A stretch of 58,766 bases of DNA from Candidatus Uhrbacteria bacterium (GTDB taxonomy: Bacteria > Patescibacteriota > Patescibacteriia > 2-12-FULL-60-25): contig SICT01000001.1 of NCBI GenBank assembly GCA_009691315.1, positions 1-58,766 on the forward strand, given 5' to 3'. The stretch's first letter is position 1, and the number at the start of each line of letters is the position of its first letter. A program made the position numbers and the translations under genes. Under the pieces are notes generated by a model. The model was not told the origin of the DNA. It did no database searches and saw only the letters and a program-made list of their open reading frames with translations. Positions 10,009-57,703 of the stretch are shown here, in pieces.

Positions 10009-11847
10009 TCAGGATAACGTTGCCTTGATGCGCCGTACACCCGCAGATACGGCTTCTTCTTTTTGAATTTTGAAGGAACCAAGTTCGCCCGTGTGGGTGA
10101 CGTGAGGACCACCGCAAATTTCTTTTGAAAAATCTGTGGCGTCGTTGCCGATAAAATAGACTTTTATTTTTTCACCGTATTTTTCTTCGAATAATCCTAT
10201 CGCCCCTCTTTTCTTCGCTTCTTCGACGGTCATCTCTTCAAATCGTACGGGCAAATCTTGTTGGATGATGTCGTTTACCATATCTTCAACTTGCTTCAGT
10301 TGTTCTACGGTGACTTTCATCGGATGAGAAAAATCAAAACGCAGACGCTCAGCGGTAATGTTTGAACCTTTTTGCTCCACATGATCTCCAAGAACATTTT
10401 TCAACGCACGATGCAAAAGATGCGTTGCCGTGTGCAAGCGCGTTGTTTCAACGGAATGATCAGCTAATCCACCTTTAAATTTCCCAGCGGAAGCTGTGCG
10501 TGAGAGTTCTTGATGTTTTTTAAACTCCTTCTCAAACGCCTTACGATCGACCATAATTCCATGCTCACGCAATATTTCTTCAGTCAATTCCCACGGAAAT
10601 CCATAGGTCGAAAACAACATAAAAGCTTGCTCGCCGGTAAGATGCTTCTGCTCGTTCTTAACAAGATTATCGATTGGCTCAATAAGTATCTTTTTAAACT
10701 CCTTCATCCCCTTCTCAAGCGTTTTTTCAAATTTCTGTTCTTCTTGCTTGAGCTCACTGACAATCCGAACCAAATTCGTTTCTAATTCTTGATAGTGTGT
10801 GCCGAACTCTCCAATGATCACAAGCGCGATCTGATGAGTGAGGGGTTCTTTGATCCCAAGACGTCGACCTTCGCGAATGGCCCGACGAAGCAAGCGACGA
10901 ACAATATAGCCCTGTCCGACATTGGATGGACTGACCCCATGCTGATCTCCAATAATGAATACCGCGGCACGAATGTGATCAGCGATAATACGAAATGGAC
11001 GTTCCGTCTCAGACGTATAACGTTTTCCAGACAACACTTCAATTTTATTAAAAATATTCTGAAAAATTTCTGTATCAAATACCGTTGGAACGTTCTGCAT
11101 GACGGCTGCAATGCGTTCAAGCCCCATACCCGTATCAACATTTTTCTGCTGCAAAGGTTTAAATGTTCCGTCTTCCTGTTTCTCATACTCCATAAACACG
11201 TTATTCCAAATTTCCACAAACCGTCCACAATCACAATTTTGATGGCACTTCAATCCAAAAGCTGGGTCATGCGCTCGACCTGTATCATAAAAAATCTCGG
11301 TATCTGGTCCACACGGACCGGTTTGACCAGCTGGCCCCCACCAATTTTTTTTCTTTGGATAAAGGCCAATACGTTCACCAACTTCCGCCCGAATTTTTGC
11401 CCGATTCAGAAACAACGTTTGCCAGATCCCAATAGATTCTTCATCGCGGGGGGCATCTTGATCCCCTTCAAACACCGTAACAAATAAACGCGTCGGATCA
11501 ATCCCAAGCCACGTCGGGTCGGTCAAAAATTCAAATGACCACTCAATCGCTTCACGCTTAAAATAATCGCCCAGCGACCAATTACCGAGCATTTCAAAGA
11601 AAGTCAGATGACGATTATCCCCCACTTCTTCAATATCATCCGTGCGTAAACATTTTTGGACACTGACTAAACGTTTTCCTCCCGGATGTTTTTCTCCTAA
11701 AAGATATGGAACCAACGGATGCATGCCGGCGGTCGTAAATAAAACGGTTGGATCATTTTCTGGAATCAAAGAGGCGGACGGGATGATCGTGTGGCCTTTT
11801 TGCTGAAAAAATTCGAGGAATTTTTGGCGGATGTGTGCAACGGTCAT
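10009..11847 (-). CDS. alaS: Alanine--tRNA ligase, short form (catalytic, tRNA-recognition and editing domains; no C-Ala domain)
   Basis: The N-terminus IRQKFLEFFQQKGHTIIPSASLIPENDPTVLFTTAGM...VQKCLRTDDIEEVGD.RHLTFFEMLGNWSLGDYFK is the AlaRS class II core. HTATHLLHRAL... and CGGPHV are the editing-domain zinc motifs. The product is 612 aa and ends ...GVRRIKATLS. Confidence 0.93.
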   Translation of the reverse strand: MTVAHIRQKFLEFFQQKGHTIIPSASLIPENDPTVLFTTAGMHPLVPYLLGEKHPGGKRLVSVQKCLRTDDIEEVGDNRHLTFFEMLGNWSLGDYFKREAIEWSFEFLTDPTWLGIDPTRLFVTVFEGDQDAPRDEESIGIWQTLFLNRAKIRAEVGERIGLYPKKKNWWGPAGQTGPCGPDTEIFYDTGRAHDPAFGLKCHQNCDCGRFVEIWNNVFMEYEKQEDGTFKPLQQKNVDTGMGLERIAAVMQNVPTVFDTEIFQNIFNKIEVLSGKRYTSETERPFRIIADHIRAAVFIIGDQHGVSPSNVGQGYIVRRLLRRAIREGRRLGIKEPLTHQIALVIIGEFGTHYQELETNLVRIVSELKQEEQKFEKTLEKGMKEFKKILIEPIDNLVKNEQKHLTGEQAFMLFSTYGFPWELTEEILREHGIMVDRKAFEKEFKKHQELSRTASAGKFKGGLADHSVETTRLHTATHLLHRALKNVLGDHVEQKGSNITAERLRFDFSHPMKVTVEQLKQVEDMVNDIIQQDLPVRFEEMTVEEAKKRGAIGLFEEKYGEKIKVYFIGNDATDFSKEICGGPHVTHTGELGSFKIQKEEAVSAGVRRIKATLS

Positions 11848-53252: not shown

Positions 53253-53966
53253 ATGAACGGCTTTCTCTTAATCGATAAACCCGGCGGGATCACCTCGCAT
53301 GATGTTGTGGATGCGGTACGGCGCGTGGCTGGCATCCGTGCGGTTGGTCATGCGGGAACCCTTGATCCGTTTGCCACCGGACTCTTAATTTTAGGCCTTG
53401 GTCCAGCCACAAAAAAACTTGGTGAGTTGATTGGTCTCGACAAAACCTATGAAGCAACACTGACGCTCGGCGCGACCAGTGATACGTTTGATCGGGATGG
53501 AGTGATTACGGTAGGGGCGCACCCAAGCGTGCGCCCCTCGGCCGACCGATCAGGGCAGACACATGGGTCTGCCCCTACCGAGTCAGAGATCGAATCCGTT
53601 CTCGATCAATTCCGCGGGGGTTACGATCAACGGGCACCAATTTTTTCGGCCAAAAAAATCAAAGGAAAAAAACTCTATGAACTGGCACGAGCTGGAACGG
53701 CAACAGAAGAGATGCGTCCGATCAAGCATGTGACAATCAGCGAACTTTCGATACTCGATGCCCAATACCCAATACTACGTCTCCGCATCGTTTGTTCTTC
53801 TGGTACGTACATTCGTTCTCTCGCTGATGACATTGGGCGTGCGCTTGGTGTTGGCGCCTATCTCTCCGAACTTCGTCGAACATCCATTGGAACCTGGTCT
53901 GTGAATAACGCAATTCCTCTCAAAAATCTCAACAAATCTGATCTAGACAAAATTCTCATAAAATGA
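53253..53966 (+). CDS. truB: tRNA pseudouridine(55) synthase
   Basis: I trimmed the ORF to the ATG at 53253. MNGFLLIDKPGGITSHDVV...VGHAGTLDPFATGLL contains the catalytic Asp motif, and ...CSSGTYIRSLA.D.G is also present. Confidence 0.92.
   Translation: MNGFLLIDKPGGITSHDVVDAVRRVAGIRAVGHAGTLDPFATGLLILGLGPATKKLGELIGLDKTYEATLTLGATSDTFDRDGVITVGAHPSVRPSADRSGQTHGSAPTESEIESVLDQFRGGYDQRAPIFSAKKIKGKKLYELARAGTATEEMRPIKHVTISELSILDAQYPILRLRIVCSSGTYIRSLADDIGRALGVGAYLSELRRTSIGTWSVNNAIPLKNLNKSDLDKILIK
53510..53579. repeat. GC-rich nested palindromic element lying in frame within truB
   Basis: The outer arms ggtagggg/cccctacc enclose two hairpins, ggggcgcac-N6-gtgcgcccc and gggcagac-N6-gtctgccc. The element encodes ~VGAHPSVRPSADRSGQTHGSAP. 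Confidence 0.75.
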
Positions 53967-55708: not shown

Positions 55709-57703
55709 ATGCAGAAAATTCAGAAATACACTCTCCTATTGGTGAGTGTTCTTGCTCTGCAATCCATCCTCCAGACCATTTTTTATTATCTTGGATGGCA
55801 TTTGGGATGGATGACGGATGTGGGAAGCTTCGTTTTGAGTTTGGGAATTCTTATTCTCGTTCTCAAGCGTCACGGGTCCTGCCACGGCGCCACCCACTCC
55901 GTACTCGTCCCGCGACGGGACTCCGTGCTGAGCGGGGCCCGTCGCCGTGTCACCCGTGATGTCGTATTTCTCCTTCTATCTGTTTTAGTGACGATTTTCA
56001 TCCTCTGGACCACGATTACGCACGCCACAACAGAATCCATCCGCACCCCTTGGCCCTTACTTGGATCGGCAACGTTGATCGCTCTCGCTATTTCTTTTTT
56101 AAGTTTGATTTTAGTTGCGTGGAAATCCCGTTCGATCATTTGCACCGCTTTCGCAAGCACCCTCACAATCATGAGTGTGACATTCATCACGCCGCTCCTA
56201 TACAAACTTGGCTTTGGCTTTGATGGTTTCCTGCATCGTGCCAGCGAAAATATTATATTACAAACCGGCACGCTCGATCCGCATCCTGCTTACTATATTG
56301 GTCAATATGTATTTGTCACCTGGCTTTCGCGCGTGACAACCATCCCGCTCCATTTCATGGACATCTGGCTTGTCCCGCTCGCGGCTCTCCTTATCCCCTT
56401 CTTTTTGTTGTTGATGGATCTTCCCTCATCATACAAACGCGTGATGCTCGTCACACTTCCACTTCTCCTTCCATTCACACCATTGATCGTCACCACTCCA
56501 CAATCTTTTGCCTATCTGCTGGGCTTTTTTGCCCTTTGTACTGCTTTAGGATATCGATCAAACCAACTCCCTTTGATCGTTCCCCTGTCACTTGTTGCTT
56601 GGTCACTCGTCACACACCCTCTCGCCGGAATTCCATTTTTGGGAGCCGTGATCGGCATTTTACTCATGGCAACGGGTGAGGCATCCCTGCATCGCGAGAC
56701 TGCGGGCAGCGAGCAGGGCGGGGATGCCTCACCCGTTGCACGACAGCTTGTTTATCTTGCCATCATTATTTTAACATCCGCCACGATTCCCCTTCTGTTT
56801 TTCTTTACCAATGGTTTTTCTTTTCACTCATACTCGATCCTTAATACTTTATACTCAATACTCACGCCACCGATCATCCACGTTTCTTTTTGGATCGATT
56901 GGTCCGCATTTATTGATTATCTGTTCCCATTCATGCTGATCTTGCTCGCGTTCTTTTCACATAAAAATCGACAAGCCTGTTTTCTTCTTTTTCTTGGTCT
57001 TGGAATGACCGTCGCGAGTCTTATCCTGAAAGCCACCGGCAATTTCTCCTTCTTGATTGATTATGAACGCTCAAACTACGCAGATCGATTATTGATTCTG
57101 GCACAGCTCTTTCTCCTCATTCCTGCGTTGATTGGAAGCACTACAATCATTCATCAATGGAAACGCATCTCAATCTTTCCTGTCGCCTTCTGCTTGATCA
57201 TCCTCGCCGCTTGGTTTTCTGCGCGTGCCTATTTCACTTTTCCACGCCATGATGCCGCAATCACCGGTCATGCTTGGAGCATGGGACAAGCGGATATCGA
57301 TGCCGTACGCTGGATAGAACAAAATGCCCAAGGCAAACCCTACACGGTGCTAGCCAATCAATCAGTCAGTGCCGCAGCCATCCAAGAATTTGGATTTAAA
57401 CGGTACACGGATAAAAATATTTTTTATTATCCGATTCCAACGGGTGGCCCTCTCTATCAACACTTTCTTGAGGCGAGCAGCGTAAACCCTCAGAATGAAC
57501 ACGCCACACAGCAAGCGATACGACAAGCTTCGCAACTCGGAAAAAGTGACTTGGTCTATGTAGTGATAAATAATTATTGGTGGGATGCCGAAAATGTAAA
57601 CAGGTGGTTATCCCATATCACCACTGACCCTGTTGGTGTAATCCGAAATGGGAAAATACGTATTTATGAGTTTGATCTTAGCAATCCTAATATCTTCTTT
57701 TGA
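55709..57703 (+). CDS. Large polytopic membrane protein with a C-terminal soluble domain (GT-C-like architecture, function unknown)
   Basis: The 664-aa product has many TM helices and ~150 soluble C-terminal residues. It lies beside a GT4 gene. The family assignment is by architecture only. Confidence 0.55.
   Translation: MQKIQKYTLLLVSVLALQSILQTIFYYLGWHLGWMTDVGSFVLSLGILILVLKRHGSCHGATHSVLVPRRDSVLSGARRRVTRDVVFLLLSVLVTIFILWTTITHATTESIRTPWPLLGSATLIALAISFLSLILVAWKSRSIICTAFASTLTIMSVTFITPLLYKLGFGFDGFLHRASENIILQTGTLDPHPAYYIGQYVFVTWLSRVTTIPLHFMDIWLVPLAALLIPFFLLLMDLPSSYKRVMLVTLPLLLPFTPLIVTTPQSFAYLLGFFALCTALGYRSNQLPLIVPLSLVAWSLVTHPLAGIPFLGAVIGILLMATGEASLHRETAGSEQGGDASPVARQLVYLAIIILTSATIPLLFFFTNGFSFHSYSILNTLYSILTPPIIHVSFWIDWSAFIDYLFPFMLILLAFFSHKNRQACFLLFLGLGMTVASLILKATGNFSFLIDYERSNYADRLLILAQLFLLIPALIGSTTIIHQWKRISIFPVAFCLIILAAWFSARAYFTFPRHDAAITGHAWSMGQADIDAVRWIEQNAQGKPYTVLANQSVSAAAIQEFGFKRYTDKNIFYYPIPTGGPLYQHFLEASSVNPQNEHATQQAIRQASQLGKSDLVYVVINNYWWDAENVNRWLSHITTDPVGVIRNGKIRIYEFDLSNPNIFF
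55870..55959. repeat. GC-rich concentric-palindrome element in frame within the membrane-protein gene
   Basis: The nested arms are tcacgggt/acccgtga (55870-77 / 55952-59), cacggcg/cgccgtg (55883-89 / 55943-49) and a central gtcccg-cga-cgggac (55907-21). The element encodes HGSCHGATHSVLVPRRDSVLSGARRRVTRD. Confidence 0.7.
56669..56739. repeat. GC-rich element with 19-bp perfect inverted arms in frame within the membrane-protein gene
   Basis: The arms gcaacgggtgaggcatccc and gggatgcctcacccgttgc are separated by 33 nt. By my count 50 of 71 nt are G+C. The element encodes ~ATGEASLHRETAGSEQGGDASPVA. Confidence 0.8.

Follow-up and report, generated by a model that had tools for sequence, protein, structure and literature searches.

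We found that a GC-rich palindrome of 90 nt, located at positions 55870-55959 within a membrane protein gene of a Candidatus Uhrbacteria bacterium, is a member of a repeated family of structured elements and not a chance palindrome. The stretch of DNA analysed, here called the window, comprises 58,766 nucleotides of contig SICT01000001.1. The element is probably a copy of a small, non-autonomous selfish hairpin repeat comparable to Rickettsia palindromic elements (RPEs) and repetitive extragenic palindromes (REPs). It consists of a conserved base, the foot, formed by a 5' and a 3' motif, and of helices above it that vary from copy to copy. The features of the element and its host gene are as follows.

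55709..57703, + strand: host gene, encoding a 664-aa multi-pass membrane protein (open reading frame; alignment with 16 relatives).
55870..55959, + strand: complete hairpin repeat copy of 90 nt whose top strand lies on +, in the sense direction of the host gene (fold; covariance models R1 and R2, described below).
55872..55883, + strand: 5' foot, ACGGGTCCTGCC, made of the helix ACGGGT, a CCT bulge and GC(C); invariant or nearly so in 22 same-family matches and 102 foreign copies.
55884..55948, + strand: interior helices that vary between copies, including the apical hairpin GTCCCG-CGA-CGGGAC (55907-55921); 19 of 27 pairs changed on both sides.
55949..55957, + strand: 3' foot, GTCACCCGT, which pairs with the 5' foot and bears the conserved G.T wobble partner (102 foreign copies).

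The element is a single stable hairpin

The first-pass annotation of this DNA had described three nested inverted repeats, and all three were found where it placed them: an outer repeat (TCACGGGT at 55870-77 and ACCCGTGA at 55952-59), a middle repeat (CACGGCG at 55883-89 and CGCCGTG at 55943-49) and the central palindrome at 55907-21. The GC content of the element is high as annotated, 73% versus 47.2% genome-wide, and GC at third codon positions reaches 0.80 within the element versus 0.48 across the remaining open reading frame (ORF). The direct repeat ACTCCGT, said to flank the centre, is present at 55896-902 and 55920-26, but it is absent from the second copy of the element described below and appears incidental. 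Likewise, the description of the element as exactly 30 codons holds for its length of 90 nt but not for its phase, as it starts at a third codon base (phase 2) and the peptide HGSC...VTRD is encoded by 55871-55960.

Folding of the element with short flanks (111 nt) revealed one long hairpin with a minimum free energy of -54.7 kcal/mol (z = -4.72), a stability that none of 200 dinucleotide shuffles matched. Shuffling the order of the codons, a check proposed with the annotation, gave z = -4.1 with 1 of 1000 sequences equally stable, and synonymous recoding of the same peptide with codons drawn from neighbouring genes gave z = -4.1 with none of 1000 equally stable. The free energy also lies below the 0.1 percentile (-50.7) of 23,347 segments of 100 nt taken across the genome, a comparison that flatters the finding because the segments were laid on a grid and not centred on hairpins.

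A second copy resides in dnaX

The genome scanned comprises 940 kb on 74 contigs (47.2% GC, 93% complete), the window being contig C15. Sensitive blastn revealed a second copy in dnaX (C6:9540-9629), 80% identical to 55870-55959, 90 nt long and in frame. Compared with 55870-55959, the dnaX copy carries four indels of +1 and one of -4 that sum to zero, leaving both copies at 90 nt, together with a compensatory change of A-T to G-C in the terminal foot helix. The similarity of the two copies ends abruptly at the hairpin boundaries. The dnaX copy has the orientation of its host gene, is read in a frame partly different from that of 55870-55959, and lies in a Pro-rich flexible linker past domain III that is variable in all relatives. 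Two further CGGGTCCTG sites in the genome, on contigs C53 and C64, are not copies.

The family has copies in many genomes and phyla

R1, a covariance model derived from both copies of this genome, scored 105.5 bits on 55870-55959 and gave full-length matches in seven further genomes from the same taxonomic family, among them G117 with nine, G004 with four and G112 with four, and in three genomes from other families of the class. Related copies, on which the first-pass annotation had made its claim depend, thus exist beyond this genome. Counts of the motif ACGGGTCCTGCC exceeded those of its reversed control by 19 to 3 in G117 and by 12 to 0 in G112.

Searching one genome per GTDB species for the foot pattern, i.e. 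ACGGGTCCTGCC followed by a gap of 55-85 nt and GTCACCCGT with interior pairing not required, returned more than 119 loci across many phyla, where about 17 matches would be expected by chance according to our own estimate, which assumes uniform base composition. Among the matches listed, about 55 were from Saccharibacteria, about 20 from Omnitrophota and about 12 from Planctomycetia; further hosts were Roizman-, Gottesman-, Doudna-, Nomura- and Uhrbacteria, a few metagenome-assembled genomes of Gamma- and Deltaproteobacteria, Elusimicrobia, Aminicenantales and Nitrospirales. About five loci resemble chance matches (e.g. L073 of Streptomyces and L125 of Chloroflexia), and nearly all the remaining ones fold as hairpins. 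The pattern matched 78 times in 12 host genomes, versus none for the reversed-pattern control. Near-identical copies were found at different loci of single genomes, with a Roizmanbacteria genome having 17 copies and two Planctomycetia genomes 12 and 9.

A further model (R2) was built from 102 foreign copies recognised by R1, without any sequence of the genome studied here. When run on this whole genome at E <= 1, R2 matched only the dnaX copy (85.1 bits) and 55870-55959 (75.0 bits, E 9e-13). Given that R2 contains no sequence of the genome in which it finds 55870-55959, this element is a typical family member. An even sample of Patescibacteria yielded a family match (E <= 1e-5) in 20 of 401 genomes and 18 of 320 genera, a patchy distribution as expected for a horizontally moving element. 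Rfam 15 contained nothing relevant for 55870-55959 at E <= 1 and nothing at the gathering score for 15 copy-bearing loci. The motif CGGGTCCTGCC occurred in no paper in a full-text literature search, nothing specific was found in the literature on such elements in the candidate phyla radiation (CPR), Saccharibacteria or Omnitrophota, and the RepRanger paper is silent on these phyla. One arrangement seen among the Uhrbacteria is that of G117:C29 (L043), in which two copies flank rplL, at ~10642-10719 in the rplJ-rplL spacer and at ~11155-11231 after rplL.

An invariant foot supports a drifting interior

Members of the family are hairpins of about 76-113 nt that carry both foot motifs at the base of one hairpin, as does 55870-55959. 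In the 102 foreign copies the helix ACGGGT/ACCCGT is without variation, as are pairs 4-8. Next to this helix come three bases (CCT) left unpaired on the 5' side alone, and then pair 12-166, which is G.U(T) in 99 of these copies. The two pairs outside the foot helix covary freely. A second wobble and the inner motif GTSC-TCG...CTSCGSGC are retained in many subfamilies, the window copy reading GTAC-TCG...CTCCGTGC at this place. The changes on both sides of 19 interior pairs were counted in an alignment that was fitted by the model and hence favours its structure. In the same model-fitted alignment, 90.9% of cells were paired versus 75% in shuffles, none of 500 shuffles being as high, and pairing fell to 33-47% when the partners were slid by 1-3 columns. 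Bulge and wobbles are confined to one strand; the complementary strand would present A.C mismatches in place of the wobbles. This indicates that the selected form is a folded single strand.

Copies within genes keep the reading frame open

About one third of the copies are intragenic, lying in long ORFs in either orientation and nearly always in frame and open. We counted 36 frame combinations in which an ORF continues across the element in frame and meets no stop, and few plausible cases of a broken frame; where the frame is shifted, in a few combinations, this mostly reflects a secondary frame in GC-rich DNA or the ordinary boundary of a gene. Host genes, judged by eye from their sequences to be ordinary housekeeping genes, encode IleRS, a penicillin-binding protein, PriA, Tgt, QueA, PheT, MurB, TrpA and RluD, and those within the taxonomic family of the window encode LeuRS, membrane glycosyltransferases and a secreted protein. 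For an intron it would be unnecessary to be in frame and free of stops, which argues that the intragenic copies are translated and not spliced.

Orientation relative to transcription was scored for 120 credible copies. Those within genes were evenly divided (19 sense and 19 antisense), those between co-directional genes were more often antisense (9 sense and 18 antisense), and the other spacers were convergent in nine cases and divergent in eight. An orientation that is even or reversed with respect to transcription is not what one would expect of a terminator or of an mRNA element acting in cis. Comparison of the IleRS gene of five related Saccharibacteria revealed three sites at which some species carry the element and others do not (L079, L122, L121, L156), which shows gain or loss of the element as well as its long-term retention. 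One of these genes (L079) contains two copies.

The host membrane protein of the window matched no Pfam family. Its homologues bear the name of hypothetical proteins of Candidatus Uhrbacteria, and the gene is conserved in Uhrbacteria-like genomes. The motifs GFGFDGFLH, PRHDA, YTVLANQSVSAAA and YPIPTGGPLY are strongly conserved in every related genome searched. Alignment with 16 relatives placed the 30 residues encoded by the element, which are rich in Arg, His and Ser, as almost the entire loop between transmembrane segments 1 and 2 (TM1-TM2), with the frame open throughout; this loop varies in all 16 relatives and none of them has a similar peptide. In G004, whose genome belongs to the same genus, the orthologue has a family copy (L037, G004:C69:5475-5569) in the same TM1-TM2 loop, inverted and in frame. 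The inverted copy is either an in-place flip or a second independent insertion.

Origin and spread of the element

If 55870-55959 is a selfish hairpin repeat, as we consider probable, such a repeat would spread as DNA, its copies landing both between and within genes. Intragenic insertions would survive only where the frame stays open, in tolerant loops or linkers, and the interior helices above the foot would drift freely as long as pairing is kept. By analogy with REPs and their transposase RAYT, with the ends of IS200/IS605 and with integron attC sites, the foot may be the recognition site of a putative enzyme acting on the element as a folded single strand, while the encoded peptide itself would have no selected function. 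It is conceivable, though we hold it doubtful, that the family represents an unrecognised class of mobile DNA common to CPR/Patescibacteria, Omnitrophota, Planctomycetota and others, in which a putative enzyme reads the bulged, wobble-marked foot of the single strand in its folded form, and insertion, or template switching at the hairpin later on, makes locus-specific inverted flanks instead of direct target duplications. If true, this mechanism of spread would differ from transposition of the RAYT/IS200 type as well as from that of the DDE type.

A number of observations weigh against the element being a mobile selfish repeat. The analysis found no enzyme that would mobilise it. No match to Y1/RAYT (PF01797) above the cut-off was found in this 93%-complete genome, and PF01797 is likewise absent from G117 with its 19 motif sites, from G112 with 12, and from four copy-bearing Saccharibacteria genomes. 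Near the Y1-like genes examined, no foot motif lies within ~1.5 kb, and the Y1-like paralogues are not recent copies of an insertion sequence (IS). No transposase recurs beside the copies, the recurring neighbours being syntenic housekeeping genes only, and no long element bounded by feet was found in 870 kb of loci, whole genomes not having been scanned for distant pairs of ends. Direct target-site duplications are not visible in the flanks of the copies; instead, many intergenic copies form the tip of an inverted repeat that is specific to the locus and measures up to 26 bp, and ordinary transposition does not account for such flanks. An empty counterpart of 55870-55959 was not obtainable among 5.8 billion proteins, the nearest homologues being ~45% identical, so that its insertion is deduced from the family and not directly seen. 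Furthermore, the linker holding the element is no longer than in relatives in either host protein, the membrane protein or DnaX, and it seems that the element replaced the native linker, or that native residues were trimmed later, in both. Finally, transcription and translation through the element are predicted from the conservation of the frame.

The inverted flanks could, speculatively, derive from insertion into pre-existing palindromes or from template switching that extends the hairpin outward. At one IleRS site (site 1) host sequence makes up the right arm, and the left arm resembles an inverted copy of it; site 2 does not fit this pattern. Foot ends that seemed to be solo turned out to be variant or longer copies. 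Several CPR genomes (G516, G517 and G491; L178-L187 and L056) hold 5-9 diverged paralogues of ~225 aa that match only the C-terminal two thirds of Y1_Tnp.

Of the other explanations, a REP/REPIN-type element moved by a RAYT (Y1 HUH transposase), similar to the GTAG-tagged palindromes in the nearby truB, would account for a repeat that forms a hairpin and has a foot both conserved and strand-asymmetric; intragenic REPs are known (PMC3733652), and Y1_Tnp genes are present in some host genomes. We nevertheless consider it unlikely, as neither GTAG nor a conserved CGTC tag is found in the alignments, the element is one long hairpin and not two inverted short REPs, PF01797 is missing from the genomes named above, including the copy-rich ones, and the foot motif does not accompany the Y1-like genes examined. 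Slightly less likely still is a classical MITE (miniature inverted-repeat transposable element), that is, two joined terminal inverted repeats of a DDE-type IS moved in trans by that IS. The inverted repeats at the ends, the size, the copy number and the patchy distribution fit a MITE (review PMC10969869), but many flanks are inverted complements where direct target duplications would be looked for, no parent IS with these ends occurs in the 870 kb of loci or recurs beside copies, and the conserved bulge and G.T wobble indicate recognition of a folded single strand and not of a duplex terminal inverted repeat.

The strong covariation, the invariant unpaired nucleotides and the two conserved G.U pairs would also suit a functional structured RNA, whether a cis-regulatory element, small RNA or ribozyme, or an element that is excised from transcripts like an intron. 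This explanation is improbable given that the window copy has no match in Rfam even at E <= 1, that copies stand in both orientations relative to their host genes and in promoter-side and terminator-side spacers alike, and that copies within genes almost always keep the frame and lack stops, which a spliced element would not need. That the codons of the loop are self-complementary by accident, as a chance or lineage-specific coding feature, agrees with the variability of the loop in all relatives; it is however refuted, and carries next to no weight, since the nulls preserving codons and peptide reject it, R2, a model from other phyla, matches the element at 75 bits, and the second copy lies in an unrelated gene in a partly different reading frame.

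Comparison with known palindromic repeats

Among known systems, the behaviour of the selfish repeat proposed here is closest to that of RPEs, which, according to the summary of Ogata et al. 2000 in PMC10969869, are ~150 bp long, occur only in Rickettsia and encode a conserved peptide in each family. Both are short dispersed palindromes of reduced genomes that lie in many cases in frame in unrelated housekeeping genes, are read through and have no transposase of their own (for RPEs, PMC10969869). Unlike RPEs, the present family measures 76-113 nt, spans many phyla, is read in several frames and both orientations and conserves a nucleotide foot, not a peptide, so that the two are likened by behaviour only. 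With REPs and REPINs, of which intragenic GTAG- and CGTC-tagged forms are described by Di Nocera et al. 2013 (PMC3733652), it shares GC-rich hairpins, a conserved asymmetric end, a location between and sometimes within genes, and a presumed action as folded single strands. It differs from their paired REPs of 20-40 nt in forming one long hairpin, in having no GTAG/CGTC tag, and in that no RAYT was found here or in several copy-rich hosts.

Small non-autonomous repeats able to form in-frame fusions are also known among MITEs, such as QMITE1 of Coxiella, which fuses in frame with genes (PMC5896051), and intragenic ERIC; these have a recognisable parent IS and/or target duplications, whereas none were found for this family. 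The ends of IS200/IS605 and integron attC sites likewise keep their structure while the sequence drifts, and extra-helical or mismatched bases mark one of their strands. They are situated at the ends of an IS or in cassette arrays beside a recombinase, whereas the copies described here are solitary and scattered, and we regard this as a resemblance only.

Selfish palindromes that are read through in essential genes are a textbook curiosity of Rickettsia. The family described here is probably a new, widespread form of such selfish palindromic repeats tolerated in frame. It displays the same read-through behaviour, and its 21-nt foot is shared by phyla that are very distant from one another, are mostly uncultivated and have tiny genomes. 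As a searchable marker the foot can flag odd GC-rich 'inserts' in predicted proteins, and it can be used to trace horizontal exchange among co-occurring ultra-small bacteria and to seek the enzyme that would recognise it. For annotation, the family accounts for loops rich in Arg, His, Pro and Gly in otherwise conserved proteins of these lineages.

Neighbouring palindromes belong to separate families

The first-pass annotation had grouped 55870-55959 with a second element in the same gene and one in truB as a locally active or clustered family that might share one covariance model. Delimiting the element families of the genome by a scan for GC-rich, strongly folding islands together with sensitive blastn did not bear this out: R1 and R2 each match only 55870-55959 and the dnaX copy genome-wide (E <= 1), and local activity is not supported either, this family having just two copies in the genome, which are 80% identical and lie on different contigs. 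The truB element (53509-53580) belongs to a separate family of about 12 copies with the ends GTAGGGGCG...CCCCTAC, and the element at 56669-56739 in the membrane protein gene to a third family of 3-4 copies. The presence of three elements of different families within 3.3 kb is only marginally unusual (p ~0.03-0.04, a rough hand estimate based on ~19 such elements in 940 kb).

Copies of the truB-element family, with ends GTAGGGGCG...CGCCCCTAC, are paired short palindromes mostly within long ORFs, and their sites include C4:20515, C6:7672, C19:4655, C22:1452, C23:5932, C23:11027, C50:6404, C51:5114 and C73:3695. The relatives of 56669-56739 are C11:11771-11833 (92%), C71:25880-25942 (84%) and, weakly, C3:17520-17575 (74%), and their stem changes are compensatory. 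This element has an ACGGGT/ACCCGT helix and a TCGCnAGnCTGCGGGC inner motif in common with some subfamilies of the 55870-55959 family, and neither R1 nor R2 matches it. The genome also contains stretches of 66-80% GC on the kilobase scale, often near contig ends, on C5 (11.5-14.7 kb), C12 (13.6-14.6 kb), C21 (0.5-6.5 kb), C45, C48 and C74 (4.3-5.2 kb); in a genome of 47% GC these could be foreign islands or mis-binned sequence.

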